Assembly: GCA_965287045.1 (NCBI GenBank)
Contig: OZ336877.1
Span: forward strand, 620,001 to 684,000
Source of the DNA: Carcharhinus amblyrhynchos
Lineage: Eukaryota
Length of the DNA stretch: 64,000 nucleotides
Direction of reading: 5' to 3'
The notes under the pieces are model-generated. The model was given only the letters and a program-made list of their open reading frames with translations, ran no database searches and was not told where the DNA came from. Positions 110 to 62,170 of the stretch are shown here, in pieces; within the stretch, counting starts at the first letter, position 1; the number at the start of each line of letters is the position of its first letter. The translations under genes and the position numbers were made by a program.

Positions 110-268
110 GGAAGGAGTTTCCCAACACCAGGTTAAAGTCCATTTGGTAGCGCAAGCTTTCGGAGTGCTGTCCCTTCGTGCTACCAAATAAACCTGTTGG
201 ACTTTGACCTGATGTTTTGAGACTTCTTAATGTGTTTTCCCCAATCCAACACTGACATCTCCACATCG
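110..268. mobile_element. Internally deleted copy of the palindromic PLE-type short element (fuller copy at 57937-58144)
   Basis: caacaccaggttaaagtcc...aagctttcggag and gctaccaaataaacctgttggacttt...catctccacatc match both arms and the tail of 57937-58144, with the hairpin centre deleted. Confidence 0.8.
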
Positions 269-2855: not shown

Positions 2856-3685
2856 CATAAGAACATAAGAAATAGGAGCAGGAGTAGGCCATCTAGCCCT
2901 TCGAGCCTGCCCCGCCATTCAATAAGATCATGGCTGATCTGTCGTGGCTCAGTTCCACTTTCCCGCCCTCTCCCCATAACCCTTAATCCCCTCTCTTACC
3001 AAAAACCCATCAACCCGCTTCTTAAAAATATTTAGCGAGGCAGCCTCCACCACCTCAACGGGCAGAGAATTCCAGAGATTCACCACCCTTTGAGTGAAGA
3101 AGTTCCTCCTCAACTCCGTTCTAAACCGCCCCCCCCTTTATCTTGAGGCTGTGCCCCCTAGTCCTACTGTCCTTTCTGAGCGGGAAGAGTCTCTCCACCT
3201 CTATCCTATCCATCCCATTCATCATCTTATACGTCTCAATGAGATCTCCCCTCATTCTTCTAAACTCTAACGAGTACAAGCCTAGTTTATCCAGCCTCTC
3301 CTCATAGTTCAACCCCCTCAACTCCGGTATCAGCCGAGTAAACCTCCTCTGCACTCCCTCCAAGGCCAAAATATCCTTGCGCAGGTGCGGCGCCCAAAAC
3401 TGCACACAGTACTCCAGCTGCGGCCTCGCCAGTGCCCTGTACGGTTGCAGCAAGACCTCCCTACTTTTATATTCAATCCCCCTCGCTATGAAGGCCAGCA
3501 TCCCATTCGCCTTCCTGACCACCTGCTGCACCTGCAAGCTGGGTTTTTGCGACTCGTGCACAAGGACCCCGAGGTCCCTCTGCACCGTCGCCTGCTGCAG
3601 TTTTTCGCCACGTAAGTAATAGTCCTTCCTACCGTTATTCCTACCAAAGTGGACCACCTCACACTTGCCAGCATTAAATTCCATC
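2856..3685 (-). mobile_element. CR1 LINE 3' fragment, young subfamily
   Basis: ORF 3121-3684 reads MEFNAGKCEVVHFG...RPQLEYCVQFWAP...SLEFRRMRGDLIETYK. It carries the 3' UTR and (ttcttatg)n tail and is nearly identical to 19833-20660. Confidence 0.95.
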
Positions 3686-4874: not shown

Positions 4875-6488
4875 TTGAATAAGATGGAACCTCCTGCAGG
4901 CCGTAAGACCTGCGTCCACTCCCCACCTTTGACGGTCACCCAGCACTCCGAAAAATCAACCCCCATTGTCCAGAAATCGCTAACGCCGCTCTTTTAAATT
5001 TACTTGTAGATCTCCAGATCTCCCAACCTCCGAAGGAAAACCGTGACCTGGCAGAGACCCCGAGGACTTCAACACGTGGACCTGTGACATCAGCTCACCC
5101 ACAAACGCCACCCCAGAGACGACGTCCACTTAGTGGCCCTTCACCCATCCACCCCGGAGTGTGGCCTGGACATCCTCTCATCCCACCGCAGCTTGGCAGT
5201 TTACTGTCAAATAAATCGCTTGGACTTAAACCTGGCACCGTGAGATTTCTTAGTGAGTTTACCCCACTCCAACACCAGCATCTCCACATCATCCTCTGAT
5301 CACCAAAGCCAAACTGCGGCCCGGTGACACGGAGAGCGCTCGCACGTCTACCGATACAGGGACCACGAGCAAAGCGACTCATCCTCCATCCACGCACCCA
5401 ACAGAGCAAAGAACCTCCCTGGACACACCAATCCCCTCGATATCGCAAACTACTCTCACCATCTCCCAGGCCCCAAAAGCAGTGATCACGCTCGTAAGTA
5501 TAACAATGTGCAGGTCTGGAGGTGAGAGTGAAGAAATGTGGTCCCGCAGCCCCCCCAACCCCCTCCCCAGCTTCCTGCCCTCAAATGGCCGATCTCTGGA
5601 AAACCCGTCAGGTGAACTTAAAGCTGGACTGACTTTCCGAAGAGAACCGAGGGACTGCTGTACGTTCTGTTCCGCAGAGTCGTGGCTCACTCCTGCTTCA
5701 CCAGACTGTCCCCGACAACCAGAGGATTTCTCAACCCGCACTGTGGCCTCAGGCAAGACAGAGAGAGGTGGGGCCTGTTTCCTAATCGACACCTCCTGAT
5801 GCCTAGACATAGCAACACTGCTCCGTGGATGCAGAATTCCTGAAGCTGAAATGCCACCCCTGCTGCCTTCCGCGGGAGTTCACCTCTGTTATTCTGACAG
5901 CAGGTGATATTCCACCTCATCCAGATGTGAAAAGCTTTCTGGCCAAAATATATATCACCGCAAATAGCCTGGAGATGAAACATCCCAAAGCCTTGTACGT
6001 TGTGGTTGGGCCTTCAATCGGGCCAAGCTTCAGAGCATTGGACCGAGGTACCACCGACACGTCTGTTCCACTGGCGGGTCAAACCCCCTGGACCGTTGCT
6101 ACACCAATGTCAAACATGCCGAGCGCTCTATCGCCCTCCCGCACTTGGGTAAATTGAACCATGCACCCGGCTTACACGCAAAAACTGGAACTGTTCCCAT
6201 CAAACAAAGTCGTGCAGTGTTGGTCTGAGGAATCGGATGAGCTCCCACGGGACTGCTTAGAGTCAGGAGACTGCCCGGTATTTCAAAGCTCTGTAAGCAG
6301 CCTGAACGGGTCCAGCACGGCAGGAACGGACTGCGTCAGTGTGCGTGTAGAAGCAAATCCGTGTGTTTCCCGACTGGAAACCGTGGATGAACAGGGATAT
6401 CCAGATCTGAGGTGCTCAAGTCGGATGATCCTGACTTACACCAGGAAGCCTGATACGATCTACAGAGAATCATCAAAGATGCCTAAAG
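4875..6488 (+). mobile_element. Rex1/Babar-like LINE 5' half (5' region and APE endonuclease), decayed
   Basis: PLPSFLPSNGRSLENPSGELKAGLTFRREPRDCCTFCSAESWLTP, EFLKLKCHPCCLPREFTSVILTAGDIPPH and KVVQCWSEESDELPRDCLESGDC are Rex1-clade ORF motifs with frameshifts. Confidence 0.8.
5190..5293 (+). mobile_element. One arm plus tail of the palindromic PLE-type element, inserted in the Rex1 5' region
   Basis: caaataaatcgcttggacttaaacctgg...gtgagatttctt...ccaacaccagcatctccacatcat matches 58061-58144. Confidence 0.75.
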
Positions 6489-8954: not shown

Positions 8955-10230
8955 GGATAGTCAGCACGGTTTCCTGAGGGGAAAAGTCCTGCCTCACCAA
9001 TTTGATTGAATTCTTTGAGGAAGTAACTAATTGTGTGGATGAAGGTAGAGCAGTTGATGTCGTATACGTGGATTTTAGTAAGGTGTTTGATAAGGTTCCC
9101 CATGGTCGGCTCATGAAGAGGATAAGGAGGTGTGGAATAGAAGGAAATTTGGCAGATTGGATAAGTAACTGGCTGTCTCATTGAACGCAGAAGATGATGG
9201 TGGAAGGAAAATGTTCAGACTGGAGGCCAGTTACCAGCGATGTACCACAGGGGTCAGTGCTGGGTCCTCTGCTATTTGTGATTTTTATCAATGACTTGGA
9301 GGAGGGGGCTGAAGGGTGGGTCAGTAAATTTGCTGATGACACCAAGATTGGTGGAGTAGTGGATGAGGTGGAGGGCTGTTGTAGGCTGCAAAGAGACATT
9401 GATAGGACGCAGAGCTGGGCTGTAAAGTGGCAGATGGAGTTTAACCCTGATAAAGGCAAGGTGATTCATTTTGGTAGGACAAACTTGAATGCGGATTACA
9501 GGGTCAACGGCAGGGTTCTGAGGAATATGGAGGAACAGAAAGATCTTGGGGTTCATATCCACAGATCTCTGAAGGTTGCCACTCAAGTGGACAGAGCCGT
9601 GAAGAAGGCCTATAGTATGTTGGCGTTTACTAACAGAGAGATTTGAGTTTAAAAGCCGTGGGGTTGTGCTGCAACTGTACAGGACCTTGGTGAGATTGCA
9701 TTTGGAATATTGTGTGCAGTTCTGGTCACCTCACTATAAGAAGGATGTGGAAGCATTGGAGAGAGTGCAGAGGAGATTTACCAGGATGCTGCCTGGTTTA
9801 GAGGGTAAAGTCTTATGAGGAAAGGTTGAGGGAGCTGGGGCTTTTCTCTTCAGAGTGGAGGAGGATGAGAGGCGACTTAATAGAGGTTTATAAGATGATG
9901 AGAGGAATTGGTAGAGTGGACGTTCAGAAACTATTTCCTCGGGTGGATGTAGCTGTTACTAGGGGGCATAACTATGAGGTTGATGGTGGGAGATATAGGA
10001 GGGATGTCCGAGGTAGATTCTTCACTCAGAGTGGTTGGGGTGTGGAATACACTGCCTGCTGTGATAGTGGAGTCGGATAATTTAGGAACTTTCAAGTGGT
10101 TATTGGATGGGCACATGGAGCACACCGGAATGATAGAGAGTGGGATAGCTTGATCTTGGGTTTGGACATAGCTCGGCACAACATTGAGGGCCGAAGGGCC
10201 TGTACTGTGCTAGAATGTTCTATGTTCTAA
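8955..10230 (+). mobile_element. CR1 LINE RT and 3' end
   Basis: GKSCLTNLIEFFEEVT, DVVYVDFSKVFDKVPH, VPQGSVLGPLLF and KFADDTK, with stops and frameshifts. Tail gggccgaagggcctgtactgtgc and (gttctat)n. Confidence 0.95.
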
Positions 10231-13712: not shown

Positions 13713-14388
13713 TATTTGGAAAGAGGAATTGTGGAAAACCAGATGGTATTCCTCCCTATTCGTAAATTAGGTGTTGCCTGCTGAAAGACAGAACGCTAAA
13801 GAACAGCAGACGCAGAAGCAGTCGAAAGGAAAACAATACTTTTGTGTTAAGAACTGGAGGCTGTGACAATGTATGGACTGCAAGACCATTCCTTTTCAAG
13901 TCCACCAATACAGCAACGTAACTTTCTGGTGGCAGGACAAGTAACTCACTTTGTGACCTTCAGAAAGTCCTTCTTTTCAAAAGAATTCTGCAATAACTCT
14001 GAAGATCAACCTTGGCGATTGAGTTCACGTTGCTGTACTGCCGGAATGAAAATCCTTTCTTCGTCAGGTCTGCACCGTGCTTTTCACGATTATTTTGTTT
14101 ATGACTTGTAAAAGTTCACGATTCTCTTTAATGATATTTTCCTCAAGTGGGTGAGTGAGTGAAGTAACGTTAGATTTTCAAGCTGAACACGTGAATGAAC
14201 AATCCCCAAAATTTCAACACACACAGAGCTTGCTGCTGGTTTTTCAAATAGTCCAAACACTCGGAGATTAAGAAACACACAAAGCATCTTTTGGGAGAAA
14301 CACACAGAATACAGACGATAAGAAAAAGGAACAGTTAAATAGCTTTAACTGTTCCTTTAAATAGTAATCCCTCCGACTATTATTCCTA

Positions 14389-15183
14389 GCAAGTGTGAGG
14401 TTATCCACTTTGGCAGGAATAATACTAAGAGGGATTACTATTTAAAGGGCGAAAAGCTGCAGCATGCTACGGTGCAGAGGGACCTAGGGGTCCTTGTCCA
14501 TGAGTCGCAAAAACCCAGCCTGCAGGTGCAGCAGGTGGTCAGGAAGGCGAATGGGATGCTGGCCTTTATAGCGAGGGGGATAGAATATAAAAGCAGGGAG
14601 GTCTTGCTGCAACTGTACAGGGCACTGGTGAGGCCGCAGCTGGTGTACTGCGTGCACTTTTGGTCGCTGCACTTGTGTAAGGATATTTTGGCCTTGGAGG
14701 GAGTGCAGAGGAGTTCACTGGGCTGATACCGGAGATGAGGGGGTTGGACTATGAAGAGAGACTAAATAGACTGGTTCTGTACTCGTTGGAGTTTAGAAGG
14801 ATGAGGGGGGATCTTATAGAGACGTATAAGATAATGAAAGGGATGGATAGGGTAGAGGTAGAGAGATTCTTCCCGCTCAGAAAGGACAGCAGGACTAGAG
14901 GACACAGCCTCAACATGAGGGGGGGGGCAGTTTAGATCGGAGTTGAGGAGGAACTTCTTCACTCAAAGGGTGGTGAATCTCTGGAATTCTCTGCCCGTTG
15001 AATATAAATATATTTAAGTCACGGGTAGATAGGTTTTTGACAAAGGAATTAAGGGTTATGGGGAGAAAGCGGGAAAGTGGAACTGATCCATTTCAGATCA
15101 GCCATGATCTTATTGAATGGCGGGGCAGGCTCGAGGGACTAGATGGCCTACTCCTGCTCCTATTTCTTATGTTCTCATGTTCT
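14389..15183 (+). mobile_element. CR1 LINE 3' fragment, young subfamily
   Basis: KCEVIHFG, QRDLGVLVHESQKPSLQVQQVVRKANGMLAFI and RRMRGDLIETYKIMKG, with 3' UTR and tail. Confidence 0.95.
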
Positions 15184-19720: not shown

Positions 19721-19832
19721 GAACTATGTCCACAGGGAGTTTTAATAGATAAATCAAAGAAAACAAAGAAACATTTGCTCAGATAGAATCTCTCAGTGTT
19801 TCACAAATGTGATCCTTTTGTCAGGAAAGGAA

Positions 19833-21035
19833 ATAAGAACATAAGAAATAGGAGCAGGAGTAGGCCATCCAGCCCTTCGAGCCTGCCCCGCCATTCAATA
19901 AGATCATGGCTGATCTGTCGTGTCTCAGTTCCACTTTCCCACCCTCTCCCCATAACCCTTAATCCCCTCTCTTATCAAAAACCCATCAACCCGCGTCTTA
20001 AAAATATTTAGCGAGGCAGCCTCCACCACTTCAACGGGCAGAGAATTCCAGAGATTCACCACCCTTTGAGTGAAGAAGTTCCTCCTCAACTCCGTTCTAA
20101 ACCGCACCCCCTTTATCTTGAGGCTGTGCCCCCTAGTCCTACTGTCTTTTTTGAGCGGGAAGAGTCTCTCCACCTCTATCCTATCCATCACATTCATCAT
20201 CTTATATGTCTCAATGAGATCTCCCCTCATTCTTCTAAACTCTAACGAGTACAAGCCTAGTTTATTCAGCCTCTCCTCATAGCTCAACCCCCTCAACTCT
20301 GGTATCAGCCTAGTAAACCTCCTCTGCACTCCCTCCAAGGCCAAAATATCTTTGCGCAGGTGCGGCGCCCAAAACTGCACACAGTACTCCAGCTGCGGCC
20401 TCACCAATGCCCTATACAGCTGCAGCAAGACCTCCCTACTTTTATATTCAATCCCCCTCGCGATGAAGGCCAGCATCCCATTCGCCTTCCTGACCACCTG
20501 CTGCACCTGCAAGCTGGGTTTTTGCGACTCATGCACAAGGACCCCGAGGTCCCTCTGCACCGTCGCCTGCTGCAGTTTTTCGCCCCGTAAGTAATAATCC
20601 TTCCTACCATTCTTCCTACCAAAGTGTACCACCTCACACTTGCCAATATTAAATTCCATTTGCCATTTCCTGGCCCATTCGCCCAGCCTATCTAGATCCT
20701 TCTGCAGACTCTTCACACCCTCCGCACAATTTGCCGTTCCCCCAATCTTGGTGTCATCAGCAAATTTCGACACCCTACACTCGGTTCCCTCCACCAGATC
20801 ATCTATATAAATGGTAAAAAGCTGAGGCCCCAGCACCGACCCCTGGGGTACTCCACTAGTCACCATCCGCCAATCCGAATAGCACCCGTTGACCCCGACT
20901 CTCTGCCTCCTATTTGACAACCAATCCTCTATCCACGCTAACACCCTACCCCCAACTCCATGTCCCTCGACCTTCTGCAATAACCTCTTGTGAGGTACTT
21001 TGTCAGACACCTTCTGAAAATCTAGAAAGACCACA
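19833..21035 (-). mobile_element. CR1 LINE 3' 1.2 kb with uninterrupted RT frame
   Basis: ORF 19925-21223 is open from VVFLDFQKVSDKVPH through VPQGSVLGP and KFADDTK to the natural stop. The first roughly 60 aa are read-through into flanking DNA. Confidence 0.95.
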
Positions 21036-21984
21036 TGAACCCTGAAATGTTGGCCAGGATTTTCCTGCCTCCTGGAAGGCTGAGTTCGAGCCTGGAGGAT
21101 GGCACGATTGTTGAAAATTGTTTTGGATCGGTTGCCCAATACAGTTTCCACGATTGGACATTTTACAATTGCAAAGAAGGATAGCGGCCAATTTAGAGGC
21201 ATTAAGGTCCAATTACGGGCCATTTTAGATTGTCAAAGGCAGGGTCAATTCTCCACAGATAATAGCTGACTATTGAGTATACTAGCATTCTCTGTTCCTA
21301 TTTCAGATTTCCAGCATCCGCACTTTCTTGCTTTTGGATCAATATTTGTGCAGTCTTTAGTCGACTGAACTGCTTTGGAGAAGGAAGGCAGAAAACCATC
21401 AAATTGATCAGTAATTATGCAGTTTAAGCAACATGGAAAAGTACCTTGAGATGCATCAACATTGGTTTGTTCTATTGGAAGAACATGTTTGAATTCCAGA
21501 ATGATGTGTCCAACAATTAAATAGTAATTTACTTGTCTGCAAAGTCACTTTAATTTTTGTCTGGAATGTTATGTCATACTGACCGGTTATTGATTCAATT
21601 GTATAGATTTGCATGTGCTAATTAAAAGTTTTGGGAGTTAGTTTTGACTTGTAATAAATCTTACTGAGTTTATCAAGAAGTGATATACGGTAGTCCAAGT
21701 TTCTTTAGAAGGTATTAATGCCAATTTTTTTATTTACCACAGCTAACTTTCACTTCACTTGACAAAAGCAGTATATTCGAGCTAAATATTGGAAAGGTCT
21801 GTTTGCAGATACAGGTGGTATATATCTTGCTATCTATTTAAAGTATTAAAATGATGCACGACATTTCTTGGAACAGATTTTTTTAATGTATGCAATTTAT
21901 TTTGCATACTGATCTTTGTTTTAAGTACAGTAATTGCAATATATAATTTGTTTGCACTCTATTCTGAAAAGTGTGAATCATGAT

Positions 21985-32152: not shown

Positions 32153-33004
32153 CTGTGTTTATTACTCAGACACCAAAAGTATAACAGCTATTCTGATTAC
32201 ACAGTGGATTCATCAACCCGGTTTCTTGCAGACCCAAGATGATCAAACACGGCCTCTGTAGATGTTGAACTGTCAATTGTCGTGCATTATATTGAAACTA
32301 GTTCCTTCTCACCCAAAACTCCAGGTTCGGCATAGCTGCTGCCTCGATGGTTTAACTGTTAAGCAGATAATATTGCAAAAGTACAGGATGATCGAAACAA
32401 TCTCAAATGTTTACATGATACTCCTTGGGAACTTCCATTGTTCGCCGTACATGGGATATAGCCAACATGTCTGTTATTTGCTATTCCCACTGTTCTAACT
32501 GTTCGTTCACATTGTTACTCTGGGCCTGAAACAAGGTATGGAGATGCCGGTGTTGGAATGTGAGACTTCTTCCTCAACAAGGACTGAGGTGACCAGAGGC
32601 AATGGGATTGCCAGGGCCAACAGTAAGTCGGGAGCAGTAGAGGCAGTAATAACAGTAGTCAGGGAATCAGGGAGAGAGGCTCAATTTCACACACATTACT
32701 ATCTCAGGAGGCAGTGGGCAGAATTTTATGACAAAAGTTCCAAGTGTCCATCTGGCACGAAAATGGGAGAGTTGCAGATCCGTTTTTGGGGTGAGTTTCT
32801 ATTCCCAATCTGACGCACAGTGTATTAAAAAGCATTGTAGCCAAACAGGCCGTCTAAAATGGCATTTTGTAAAGCACTCTGGGACAACCGGGCAAGAAAC
32901 TAAACCGACAGGCTGCAGTTTAAAGACAGACAAACAGGCTGCAACCCTGATGAGTGAATACACAGGATATGGGCCATCTCCAGGATGAAAGAGACTTTCT
33001 GGCT

Positions 33005-52844: not shown

Positions 52845-55442
52845 ACATAGAACATAGTAAAGCCTACAGCACAAACAGGCCCTTCAGCCCACTAGTTGCG
52901 CTGAACATCTCTCTACCTACTAGGCTTACCTAGAACCCGCTATCTTACTAAGTCCCATGTACTCATCCAGAAGTCTCTTAAGAGACCCAATCGAATTTGC
53001 CTCCACCACCACTGCCGGCAGCCGATTCCACTCACCACCCTCTGAGTGAAAAACTTACCCCTGACATCTCCTCTGTACCTACTCCCCAGCACCTTAAACC
53101 CGTGTCCTCCTGTGACAGCCATTTCAGCCCTGGGAAATAGCCTCTGAGAATCCACTCGATCAATACCCCTCAACAGTTTATAAACCTCTATTAAGTCACC
53201 TCTCATCCTTCGTCTCTCTGAGGAGAAAAGACCGAACTATCTCAATTTATCTTCATAAGGCATGCCACCCAATCCAGGCAACATCCTTGTAAATCTCCTC
53301 TGCACCCTCTCAATAGCTTCCACATCCTTCCTGTAATGAGGCGACCACAACTGCACACAGTACTCCAAGTGGGATCTGACAAGGGTCTTATAAAGCTGTA
53401 GCATTATCTCCAGACTCCTAAACTCAATCCCTCAATTGATGAAGGCCAGTACACTGTACGCCTTCTTGACCACATCCTCTACCTGTGAAGCCGATTTGAG
53501 AGTCCTATGAACCCAGACCCCAAGATCCTTCTGATCTTCCACACTGCTAAGAGTCTTACCCTTAATATTATATTCCTTCATCCTATTTGAACTGTCAAAA
53601 TGAACCACCACACACTTATCCGTGTTGAAGTCCATCTGCCACTTCTCCGCCCAGTCTTGCATCCTATCTATGTCACGCTGCAATTTCTGACATCCCTCCA
53701 GACTATCCACAACATCTCCAACCTTTGTGTCATCGGCAAACTTACCAACCCATCCCTCCGCTTCCTCATCCAGATCATTTATAAAAATCACAAAGAGCAA
53801 GGGTCCCAGAACAGATCCCTGGGGCACTCCATTGGTGACTGACCTCCTTGCAGAAAAAGACCCATCCACAACCACACTTTGCCTTCTGTGGGCAAGCCAG
53901 TTCTGGGTCCACAAATCAACTTCCCCTTGGATCCTATGCCACCTCACTTTCTCAATAAGATTTGCATGGGGGACCTTATCAAACACCTTGCTGAAGTCCA
54001 TATAAACCACATCTACCATTCTTCCTTCATCAATGTGTTTAGTCACATCTTCAAAAAAACTCAACCAGGTTCGTCAGGCATGATCTGCCTTTCACAAAGC
54101 CGTGCTGACTATTTTTGATCATGCTATACTCCAAATGTTCATAAATCCTGTCTCTCAGGATCTTCTCCATCAACTTACCAACAACTGAGGTTCGACTCAC
54201 TGGTTGATAATTTCCTGGGCTATCTCTACTCCCTTTCTTGATTAAAGGAACCACATCCGCAATCCTCCAATCCTCCGGAACCACTCCCGTCTCCATCGAC
54301 GATGCAAAGATCATCGTCAGGGGCTCTGCAATCACTTCTCTCGCCTCTCGCAGTAACCTGGGGTACATCCCATCCGGTCCTGGCGACTTATCTACCTTGA
54401 TGCTTTTCAAAACCTCCAACACATCCTCTTTCTTAATGTCCACATACTCAAGCTTTTCAGTCTGCTGCAAGCCTGCAGTACAACCACCAAGATCCTTTTC
54501 CACTGGGAATACTGAAGTAAAGTATTCACTGAGCACCTCTGCTATATCTATTGGATCTATACAAACTTTCCCAGCGTCACATTTAATAGGTCCTATTCCT
54601 TCACATCTCATCTTTTTGCTCTCAACATTTTTGTAGAATGCCTTGGAGTTTTCCTTAATCTTACCCGCCAAGGCCTTCTCATGACCCCCTTCTGGCTTTC
54701 CTAATTTCCTTCTAAAGTTCCTTCCTCCAAGCCGCATACTCCTCTAGATCCCTAACATTACCCAGCTCCCTGAACCTTTTGTATGCTTTTCTTTTCTTTT
54801 TAACTAGATTCGTTACAACTTTCGTGCACCATGGTTCCCGTAACCTACCGAAACTTCCCTGTCTCATCAGAATGTTGTCGTGCAGAACTCCAGATGAGCA
54901 TTCCTTGAAAATCTGCCACCTTACTTCTGTACATTTCCCTGAGAAAACCTCCTTCCAATTTATGCCTCTAACTTCCTGCCTGATGGCTTCATAATTCCCC
55001 TTACTCCAGATAAACACTTGCTTAGCTTGTCTGATCCTATCTCTCTCCAATGCTAGCATAAAGGAGATAGAGTTATGATCGCTATCCCCAAAATGCTCTC
55101 CCACTGAGAGATCTGACACCTGTCCAGGTTCATTACTCAATACCAGATCGAGTACAGCCTCTCCTCTTGTAGGCTTATCCACATATTGTGTCAGGAAACC
55201 CTCCTTAACACACCTAACAAACTCCTCCCTGCCTGAACACCTTACCCTAAGGAAATTCCAATCAATACTTGGGAAATTAAAACCTCCCATCATGACAACT
55301 CTGTTATTATTACATCTCTCCAGGATCTGTTTCCCTTTCTGCCCCTCAATATCCCTGTTACTGTTAGGCAGCCTATAGAAAATACCCAGTTAAGTTATTG
55401 ACCCCTTCCTGTTCCGAACTTCCACCCACAGAGACTCGGTAA
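52845..55442 (-). mobile_element. Long CR1 LINE (2.6 kb: APE C-terminus, RT, 3' end)
   Basis: ESLWVEVRNRKGS, GGFNFPSIDW, PTRGEAVLDLVL, SDHNSISF, KSPGPDG, QHGFVKGRSCLTNL, VPQGSVLGP and KFADDTK in consecutive frameshifted ORFs. Confidence 0.95.
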
Positions 55443-56660: not shown

Positions 56661-57744
56661 GACTATTATATAATCTCAACAAATAATTATTGATTTATTT
56701 TCATCCATACCAGAATGCAAAATATTCAAATGCTTGTTGGAAACTATAAAAAGTGAAACTAAATGCTTAGGAAGCTTTCCGTTCCTCATATTCATAATGG
56801 TGAGATCTAAGAAATGAGCAGAAAATTGTATAAACTATATATTAAAAGGATTGGGTCCGGTGTATGGCTATTGTGTTGTACGCGTGGCAAGGAGGAATGT
56901 GCTAATATATTATGAATAGCTGGGAGGCAGAAAAATTATAAACACGCAAAATTTCTAATGCATTTAGAGAATGTGTCCTCAGAGTGTGTTACCACAGTGA
57001 TTACTTTTCATGGTAGTGTATTTTCTCTTGCTCCAGTTTGTAACTAGATTGGGAAAAGGCTTGGCTAGAATATAAACACCAGCACAGAATAAACTGTATC
57101 AGCTCTGCAGATTGGATGAAAACATTCAAAATGTATTTTTAAAATGTAATTTTAACAATCAGCTTTCACACAAGTATTATCTTTCATGATTTAAAATGTT
57201 GATTAAGTTCCATCCATGCATTTAACATTCAAACCTTTATCACATTATCTCGTCTTACCTACACTGCTCCCAAGCTGCATTGCCTTGTTTCTTACAAATT
57301 GTTCTGCTAAGTGTAATTTTTAATGTTAAACTGATCTTTGATATATTACAATTTGGCAAATTTTCCCATGGAAAGAATTAATTTACTGAACCCAACCAAG
57401 CTCAATTAAATCCTGCACCTAGTAGAAAATTGTTTCTGCATTGTATTCCATGGTTACCATAGAAACGTGACTCTGCTTCAGACTTATTCACAAGTAATGT
57501 TTCCCTATTTTTCTCACCTCCGGTTAGCCAATGTGTTCGTACTGCCTGCCAGGATCGGAAGGATGTGATGGTCTAACATTCAAATAATTCGATATACATT
57601 GTTACTGAAGTTGACCAATTCTATCACGTTCAGTAACAGTCCCATGAACTCAATTATAATTTTAGGCGTTCTCAAAATCTCCGCCTTTAGAATTTCCCAC
57701 AGAACAAAGTGACAGGAAAAGCCTATCCTAGTTGCCATTGTTAC

Positions 57745-57880
57745 AGAATTATAGAATCCCTGACAGTGCAGAAAGGGGCCATTCAGCCCATTGAATTGAG
57801 CCTGCACCAGCAGCAATCCCATCCAGGCCCTTTTCCCGTAACCCCACACGTTTACCGCGCATATCTCCCTGACACCATGT
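57745..57880 (-). mobile_element. HE1 V-SINE 3' fragment
   Basis: agaatccctgacagtgcagaaaggggccattcagcccatt is the reverse complement of the HE1 tail. Confidence 0.8.
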
Positions 57881-57899
57881 TTCAGGAAGACTGTAATTG

Positions 57900-58600
57900 T
57901 TCAGAAACGAGTGCAGAGGAGGTTTACAAGAATGGTCAGTAACAAGTCTGACAACACCAGGTTAAAGACCAACATGTCTATTTGGTAGCACAATCTTTCG
58001 GAGAGCTGCAGCTTCTTCAGGCGAGTGAAGGAGAAACAACACTCCGAAAGTTTGTGCTGCCAAATAAACCTGTTGGACTTTAATCTGGTGTCGTGAGACT
58101 TCTTACTGTGCTTATCCCAGTCCAACGCCGGCATCTCCACATCATTATAAGGGGCTTGTCAGGACAAGAAAAGTGTAGCTTTGAGGAAAACTTGGATAGG
58201 TTGTGATTATTTTCCTTGGAACAGAGAAAGCTGAGAGATGACTTTGTTGAGGTGTACAAAATTACGATGGGAAGAGATGGAGTGGACAGGATAAAGTTTG
58301 TGCATGGGGCTGCTACCGAATGTGGTAGAATTGGTCGACTTCAGTAACGATGTATATTGAATTATTCGAATGTTAGACCACCTCATCCTGAAATACGGTG
58401 ACCAGAACGACACAAAATCCTTCAGTTGTGGCCTCACCGGTGTTTTATACAATTCCAATATTATATCCTGACTTGAATATTCTATACCTCTGCCAATAAA
58501 GGAGTGCATTCCATGTGCCTTCTTTATAATCTTACCTACTTGAACTGCTACCTTTAGGGACCTGTATACTTGTATACCAAGATCTCTCACTGTGCTCTAC
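57900..58600. mobile_element. Old CR1 fragments: plus strand 57900-58300 (split by the hairpin element) and minus strand 58375-58600
   Basis: RVQRRFTRM and LFSLEQRKLRDDFVEVYKI on plus. RDLGIQVYRSLK...ELYKTPVRPQL on minus. Confidence 0.75.
57937..58144. mobile_element. Palindromic PLE-type short element with hammerhead-like cores
   Basis: Arms 57937-58021 and 58026-58108 are imperfect reverse complements. Minus strand CTGAAGA-agctgcagctctcc-GAAAG. Tail cccagtccaacgccggcatctccacatcat. Confidence 0.8.
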
Positions 58601-61560: not shown

Positions 61561-61739
61561 CGGAACGGAGAGCTGCGAAAATTTACAAAATGAAGAAGGA
61601 GAATTTAACGAGACAATGGAGAATAAGCTGAACTCCAAGAAAAGGCAACTAAAAAATAAGAACAAGTCCAGTGGAGAAATGTGTCAGGAGATTAAGAGCT
61701 TGAAGAAGGGAAACATGGCAATGAGAAGTTAATCAAAAT

Positions 61740-62170
61740 ATTATTTCTACCAAAGTGGATAACCTCACATTTGCTAACATTATATTCCATCTGCCAGGTC
61801 CTCGCCCACTCACTCAGCCTATCCAAATCTCTCTGCAGACTTTCCACACCCTCCACGCAATTTGCTTTTCCACTCATCTTTGTGTCATCAGCAAATTTCG
61901 TTACCCTACACTCAGCCTCTTTCTCCAGATCATCTATATAAATGGTAAATAGCTGAGGCCCCAGCACCGATCCCTGCGGCACTCCACTAGTCACCAACCG
62001 CCAATCCGAATAGCACCCATTGATACCAACTCTCTGCTTCCTATTAGACAACCAATCCTCTATTCACGCGAATGACTTACCCTCAACTCTGTGCACCCTA
62101 ACCTTCTGTAGCAAACCTTATCAAATGCCTTCTGGAAATCTAAAAACACCACATCCACCGGTTCCCCTCT
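61740..62170 (-). mobile_element. CR1 internal RT fragment, young subfamily
   Basis: NRKQRVGINGCYSDWRLVTSGVPQGSVLGPQLFTIYIDDL...KFADDTK...KCEVIHFG. Confidence 0.92.

Follow-up and report, generated by a model that had tools for sequence, protein, structure and literature searches.

A tailed hairpin in the genome of the shark Carcharhinus amblyrhynchos is very probably a pair of head-to-head Penelope-like terminal repeats

Positions 57937–58144 of the 64,000-nucleotide stretch of Carcharhinus amblyrhynchos DNA analysed here (the window) hold a 208-base non-coding palindrome with hammerhead-like sequences in both arms, which raises the question of whether it is a small mobile element in its own right, a viroid-like RNA in genomic form, or part of something larger. 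Our analysis indicates that it is very probably two head-to-head terminal repeats (pLTRs) of a Penelope-like element (PLE), one of them tailed, likely left by one target-primed insertion into a CR1 fragment. The imperfect hairpin and 36-bp tail described in an earlier note on this DNA are confirmed by fold, arm alignment and sequence. Either strand of 57937–58108 folds into one rod, at -101.4 and -109.4 kcal/mol (z -11.2 and -12.4; 0 of 200 shuffles were as good), the arms match each other at 69 of 86 aligned positions, and the tail is placed outside the inverted repeat (Table 1). The sense arm contains an AATAAA at 58063–58068.

The target-site duplication (TSD) of the window copy is decayed: the flanks match directly at just 7 of 14 positions, and the automatic TSD score is 3. 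Both flanks align in register to one position of CR1-type copies at other loci, which implies a 14-bp duplication; judged by this register, the window copy was likely flanked by a TSD. Junctions resembling that at 58026–58028 are also found in different subtypes of the family. The antisense of the hammerhead's 5' edge (window 58018–58026) reads CAG/GTGAGT in most copies, with a GC variant in the window copy. We take CAG/GTGAGT at this edge to be a consensus splice donor, and inverted arms inside introns could serve as cryptic donors.

Table 1. Features of the hairpin locus and related pieces in the window.
Feature	Positions	Strand	Basis or remark
Second hairpin-plus-tail insertion, same family	112–268	+	blastn; inverted arm, sense arm and tail
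Sense arm and tail	5204–5292	+	blastn; without hammerhead and without adjacent inverted arm
Minimal remnant: tail and 12 nt of inverted arm	32537–32571	-	blastn
Left copy of likely 14-bp TSD	57923–57936	+	inside CR1-type LINE RT fragment
Inverted tail-less pLTR arm	57937–58028	-	PLE sense on minus strand; starts 36 nt short of tail end
Minimal type I hammerhead, decayed	57989–58023	-	sequence, arm fold
Second copy of same hammerhead, truncated and decayed	58025–58056	+	sequence
Arm-to-arm junction	58026–58028	.	TGA common to both arms (microhomology), at hammerhead's 5' edge; alignment with 29 other copies
Sense pLTR arm, 5'-truncated element end	58026–58108	+	same arm downstream of RT/GIY-YIG ORF in 28/30 coding copies
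PLE tail, 36 nt	58109–58144	+	ORF start codon directly next in full-length copies
Right copy of likely TSD, diverged	58144–58157	+	register with CR1-type copies

Three further pieces of the family lie in the window, as the earlier note had reported for 110–268, 5190–5293 and about 32537–32560; blastn recovered all three (Table 1), the tail match of the last covering 32539–32563 on the minus strand (E 0.003). This remnant is bracketed by AACAAGG direct repeats (32530–32536 and 32576–32582). The first piece was said to keep the palindromic sequence, and GAAAGCTT is indeed present on its minus strand, but its CUGA box is absent. The window has 41 ORFs of at least 120 aa, six of which match LINE-type RT or endonuclease families, and none of the 41 is a PLE frame adjoining the hairpin. 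CR1/LINE-type fragments with RT or endonuclease Pfam matches lie at 2857–3685, 9185–10031, 14380–15183, 19828–21232, 52921–55389 and 61692–62063, and many SINE-like repeats are present. The GC-rich stretch at 4900–5900, around the arm at 5204–5292, has several overlapping stop-free frames of 130–180 aa, for which there was no Pfam match.

The family is abundant. A first look at the 2.9-Gb genome gave 5872 candidates for the hairpin element. The last 29 nt of the tail have 4487 exact genomic copies (reversed control, 0), a 19-mer from the arm was counted 10,898 times, and both 15-mers are exact in 432 short hairpins. Nine arm matches in 94,342 bp of flanking DNA suggest, as a rough extrapolation, that arms number on the order of 10^5 genome-wide. 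In contigs of two runs nothing beyond a dispersed repeat was seen, its 3' boundary being identical in the two; as contigs are unable to show strand, ends or circles, this weighs neither for nor against expression. For family-wide counts we took the first 100 loci on contig 1 that match the tail exactly, chosen by tail alone; leaving out three segmental duplicates (L102–L104) and a non-anchoring copy (L128) gave a set of 96, which exact tail matching biases toward young copies. L101–L104 (C1:5.34–5.52 Mb) are four near-identical hairpin insertions with identical flanks, about 55–76 kb apart, and represent a tandem segmental duplication.

A coding element with RT and GIY-YIG domains ends in this arm and tail, and the tail abuts the ATG of its ORF. 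Among 30 copies picked by an ORF fragment, the arm lies downstream in 28, and an inverted arm lies upstream within 1.5 kb in 13. When copies were chosen by the tailed arm alone, the arm-to-arm distance ranged from about 15 bp to 1.4 kb, the longer ones running into coding sequence. At the other side of the tail, half of the loci picked by tail-plus-ATG (15/30) extend 27 nt or more into the ORF. L205, L214, L215 and L222 run on from the tail into the ORF N-terminus, and over its first 78 aa L205 shares 49% identity with the N-terminus of P0005, a homolog of 881 aa. L205 is a partial tandem in which a GIY-YIG end, a pLTR and a tail are followed by the ORF start, and L214 and L222 show an inverted truncated copy, a pLTR and the ORF; both layouts have been described for PLEs (PMC8557442). 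No full-length intact copy was among the loci retrieved. The earlier note had traced the hairpin to retro-inserted PLE terminal repeats with a minimal hammerhead, and this origin is borne out by the arm adjoining the RT/GIY-YIG ORF and by the pairing of stem II described below; the autonomous PLE that it expected to share the arm is the element found in those 28 of 30 ORF-picked copies.

The coding copies carry the expected domains to differing degrees. L088:805–2376 is a natural 524-aa frame with an RVT_1 match (E 8e-8), and RVT_1 is also matched in L087 (E 4.5e-10). GIY-YIG scores above the cut-off in L078 (E 5e-5), under it in L088 (E 0.012), and has no match at all in L068. L087 and L082 show a DKG motif, and C-x4-C-x2-C lies upstream of YLIRCxKGC...WYIGE in L068, L078, L081 and L088; judged by these motifs, the linker appears to be of the Neptune/Nematis type. 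Homologs with 81–89% identity were found in Heptranchias, Mustelus and Scyliorhinus, and others at 41–46% identity come from turtles and alligator. A PDB sequence search with L088 returned just bacterial RTs at E 0.36–0.65. A GIY-YIG family search of the genome led to three loci (L031–L033; C4:23537175, C9:81621367 and C2:41541943) that we rejected as the source; they belong to a second PLE family, whose GIY-YIG match is canonical and whose terminal sequence differs and lacks the shared arm.

Two further arrangements were seen among the coding loci. In the copies L066, L069, L071 and L079 the tail is on the inverted upstream arm and absent from the downstream arm, so either arm can carry it. 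L203, L216, L218 and L220 are short tandems in which the ORF's first 40–90 nt are followed by pLTR sequence again, as if short 5'-end templates had been copied repeatedly.

We examined the size and boundaries of the hairpins in the 96 tail-selected copies. Their tailed arms vary continuously in length between 34 nt and more than 1 kb, 84 being under about 390 nt and 12 at least about that long. In 57 copies an inverted tail-less arm lies adjacent; 27 lack one by the test used, although some of these have a more distant or interrupted one. The outer end of the inverted arm lies 30–39 nt from the tail end in 48 of the 57. A TSD score of at least 8 was reached by 44 of the 57 hairpin copies versus 19 of 1500 mismatched pairs, and a TSD was seen in merely 4 of the 27 copies without an adjacent inverted arm. 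Among the 30 copies closest to the window copy, 18 have a TSD versus 6 of 870 mismatched pairs. Family TSDs are 8–16 bp long with a mode of 12–14, measured lengths that may take in 1–3 element bases.

The junctions between the arms indicate how these hairpins arose. Just six of 1596 hairpin pairs have both breakpoints in common within 3 nt (permutation mean 4.2, P=0.23), and these six are mostly of differing subtype. By eye, the centres of 50 listed short hairpins are heterogeneous. The junctions that recur among the 30 closest copies sit at TGA/TCAC microhomologies. Since recurrence does not exceed chance, hairpins are built anew at each insertion and not copied from a small master, a statement that leaves a small self-amplifying subfamily beyond the reach of n=57. 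The two arms of one copy are related to each other: their lengths correlate (rho 0.55, p 1e-5), and they usually have the same subtype and private variants, the partner from the same copy ranking within the top tenth in 22 of 33 cases. In a few young copies the two arms differ in subtype (L150, by a 7-nt indel; L187, in stem II). We had considered that the arms generally come from different templates, an idea left mostly unsupported as arms usually share subtype.

The hammerhead motif was described in the earlier note as a core on both strands, with CTGAAGA-N14-GAAAG on the minus arm and a decayed equivalent on the plus arm. Both sequences are there, but in 30 plain pLTRs the core was found 14 times on the sense strand and never on the antisense strand, so its presence on both strands is the product of inverting one sense motif. 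In the minus arm, CTGAAGA (58020–58014) and GAAAG (57999–57995) are separated by 14 nt, and the predicted cut falls between 57992 and 57991. CUGAAGA and GAAA persist; pairing in stem II fails beyond the first pair, the AGCU dimer palindrome reads AGAU, and the arm folded alone has a stem II probability of 0. The plus arm reads GTGAAGG...CTCC GAAAG at 58025–58050 and has lost C3, A9 and the 5' strand of stem I; its AGCU reads AGUU, and its stem II is broken, with 2 of 4 pairs left. Both motifs of the window copy are thus decayed and predicted to be inactive. A search with hammerhead models, as the earlier note had suggested, came back empty around the element: there was no Rfam hammerhead match at the gathering score over the whole window and none at E≤10 over 57700–58400. 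The MIR841 and MIR447 matches from Rfam (40 and 30 bits versus a cut-off of 200) are generic miRNA hairpins and were set aside.

At the family level the minimal hammerhead is real, with a covarying stem II. The 261 arms that we compared, truncated ones kept in, were found in the fetched loci by a pattern demanding the core letters, so the stems alone are independent evidence. Stem II has at least 3 pairs in 190 of these arms (73%) versus 7% of shuffles, with G-C/A-U swaps at pairs 2–4 and a near-constant G-C first pair. The arms have an extra A after the core, 196 of 261 have the AGCU palindrome, and every hammerhead feature is intact in 68. Subfamilies differ in a hypervariable stem II and loop II, with pairing preserved, and at least three subtypes also differ by 6–7-nt indels just past the cut site.

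Given these observations, we weighed what else the 208 bases might be. A viroid-like reading would make them an ambisense RNA, a rod with an active hammerhead per polarity that circularises and replicates as RNA. The rod fold on both strands invites it, as do the 19 of 57 hairpins with the core on both arms and the intact motifs counted above. Each strand, however, has a single site, so that self-cleavage alone cannot free a circularisable unit-length monomer, and in either polarity the ribozyme is preceded by its antisense copy. In 16 of 16 equilibrium folds of eight hairpins the probability of stems I and II is 0.0, whereas among five sense arms folded on their own, both stems form at about 0.95 or above in two, and only in part or hardly at all in the other three; the rod is thus predicted to sequester the ribozyme if transcribed. 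The two motifs are one sense motif duplicated, and both cores are damaged in the window copy. Minimal PLE hammerheads are moreover reported to be inactive as monomers (accessible part of PMC4209133), and one of them needed the PLE protein (accessible part of PMC11167929). We regard this reading, floated in the earlier note as a resemblance to viroid-like RNAs, as very remote, with one site per strand that is predicted to be buried in the rod.

An ordinary MITE of a DNA transposon would likewise be short, non-coding, palindromic and very numerous. It would not be expected to have 36 nt outside its inverted repeat, TSDs that vary from 8 to 16 bp, or sequence running into an RT/GIY-YIG ORF. It is excluded by the variation in TSD length and by a tail on one side only, and we give a MITE hardly any credence; the fixed-length TSDs that the earlier note had named as the mark of one were not seen. 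Closer to our own reading is the earlier note's main proposal of a distinct small element, that is, a non-autonomous PLE derivative, SINE- or retrozyme-like, that re-amplifies from its own transcripts and is mobilised in trans by the PLE protein. The hairpins do keep the tail and both putative priming sites, such hairpins are common (those with both 15-mers exact), a small number of junction types turn up more than once in the 30 closest copies, both arms end 25–50 nt upstream of the cut in 9 of 57, and pLTRs are said to suffice for trans mobilisation (accessible text of PMC3846280). Against this stand the chance-level sharing of junctions by pairs mostly of different subtype, the heterogeneous centres, the position of the recurrent junctions at microhomologies across subtypes, and the long coding copies, which form the same tail-less inverted arm. 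With arm sizes in a continuum with the autonomous element, the proposal is not supported, and we consider it improbable. Two head-to-head PLE terminal repeats, one tailed, are the reading that we adopt.

How would such a pair be made? In the anole PLE, according to the accessible part of PMC11167929, both target strands are cut and extended, two RT start sites delimit the tail, and the hammerhead, which depends on the protein, is not required for insertion. By analogy, the shark element's protein may nick both target strands about 12–14 bp apart, and a cDNA may be primed on each strand, one starting at the tail end and the other 36 nt upstream. The two cDNAs would stop early and be joined, often via a few common bases, leaving a hairpin. 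The window copy would then reflect a single target-primed insertion into the CR1 fragment with decay since, and a ribozyme on both strands would be a by-product of inverted joining. Given the PLE identity, such twin priming on both target strands is, by this analogy, the mechanism that we moderately favour.

The second arm may instead come from fold-back self-priming on one strand, a possibility within the PLE identity that we consider less likely. The correlation of arm lengths fits fold-back, and it speaks against fully independent priming, which would not predict it. That arms mostly have private variants in common also fits, as it does one source locus copied by twin priming, and self-priming has been proposed for such palindromes (accessible text of PMC3846280). 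However, of 57 copies, 30 have the tail-less arm extending further 5' and 11 the tailed arm, and in 16 the two end within 5 nt of each other; a snap-back of the tailed cDNA cannot yield a longer tail-less arm without later deletion. The subtype differences between the arms of L150 and L187, and the extension of both strands by the anole PLE from its two tail-delimiting start sites, also weigh against fold-back.

The positions at which arms end add a mildly new observation. Tailed-arm ends peak 31–40 nt upstream of the predicted hammerhead cut (17 of 45 arms reaching that far), before which the stop rate is about 0.08 per 10 nt; the p value of 4e-8 applies to a bin selected once the data were known. 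That bin also holds the peak for inverted arms (8/57) and for copies without an adjacent arm (6/27). The window copy belongs to the class of copies ending 31–40 nt upstream. The copy at 112–268, whose sense arm begins at about the predicted cut (178), had suggested that 5' ends might lie at the cut itself; just 5 of 141 arm ends lie within 2 nt of it, and we dropped this idea. The arm ends thus pile up at the hammerhead's 5' edge, which is possibly the RNA start.

Tentatively, the stubs could be paired run-off cDNAs, akin to 'strong-stop' products, that end at a transcript start just upstream of the hammerhead. The PLE protein would prime on both target strands, using the tail-region copy that the 5' UTR contains, some 130 nt from the transcript start, and on reaching that start both cDNAs would fall off. 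Run-off at the RNA start would explain both the pile-up 31–40 nt upstream and its absence at the cut. The pile-up could alternatively stem from microhomology at the near-palindromic core or from alignments that end at points of subtype divergence; of the junctions, 28 were inspected by eye, and some have 8–14 unassigned bases. If the run-off account is true, the ribozyme would be mostly uncleaved in the template RNA, and the many thousands of hairpins in sharks would preserve a fossil record of where the PLE starts, where priming takes place and how far apart the nicks lie.

The arrangement itself has been published for PLEs, as far as the accessible parts of the sources go (PMC4209133, PMC8557442, PMC3846280). 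An inverted pLTR with tail and TSD is standard PLE anatomy (PMC8557442); Pen2a_Av has an inverted pLTR, a 31-bp tail and a 9-bp TSD (PMC3846280), and pairs of minimal hammerheads 100–700 bp apart on opposite strands were attributed, probably, to truncated PLEs (PMC4209133). The EN+ PLE insertion units, in the available descriptions (Pen2a_Av, PMC3846280; PMC8557442), resemble the shark family in having an inverted tail-less beside a direct terminal repeat, a 30–40-nt one-sided tail, variable TSDs, heavy 5' truncation and partial tandems. Unlike Pen2a_Av-type units as described there, the shark stubs have the body between the arms reduced to nothing, and stubs are the commonest form. The shark tail ends at the ORF's ATG, whereas the pLTR and tail of Pen2a_Av and anole PAc are reported to overlap the ORF start, and shark TSDs appear longer than those of the Pen2a_Av type (12–14 versus 8–10 bp, the former possibly including 1–3 element bases).

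The shark motif also agrees with the metazoan PLE minimal type I hammerheads in the accessible part of PMC4209133, in CUGANGA, the extra A, G10.1-C11.1, a variable stem II, the GAA-AGCU palindrome and a short stem I; the shark family is unmentioned in that part, and the window copy's two motifs are damaged. Poseidon PAc of Anolis carolinensis, as described in part by PMC11167929, is of a different clade, without the linker Zn finger and with start sites inside the ORF. It is alike in its two RT starts delimiting the tail, in both strands being cut and extended, and in a protein-assisted hammerhead unneeded for insertion; inverted products are not the subject of that study in its accessible part. 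Non-LTR retrozymes (accessible parts of PMC7229834 and bioRxiv 10.64898/2026.07.22.740005) are likewise non-coding, carry a type I hammerhead and are related to PLE pLTRs. They are described as head-to-tail tandems with at least 2 same-strand ribozymes releasing circular monomers, whereas the shark hairpin is head-to-head with one site per strand. PLEs are reported in all vertebrates surveyed (PMC4350176, in part), and a PLE expansion has been noted in whale shark (10.1101/443036, in part). Our literature search, thin on subscription journals, found no published description of the shark family, which may well be catalogued in Repbase or Dfam.

The window copy itself, a decayed stub in a LINE fragment, matters little. 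For screens directed at ambisense ribozyme rods it carries a caution, as these will call such stubs viroid-like. The family is the more useful object, because the formation of inverted PLE ends is still described as unresolved (PMC8557442). Sharks provide a very large sample of junctions with measurable ends, TSDs and subtype marks, with which twin priming, fold-back and run-off can be compared computationally.
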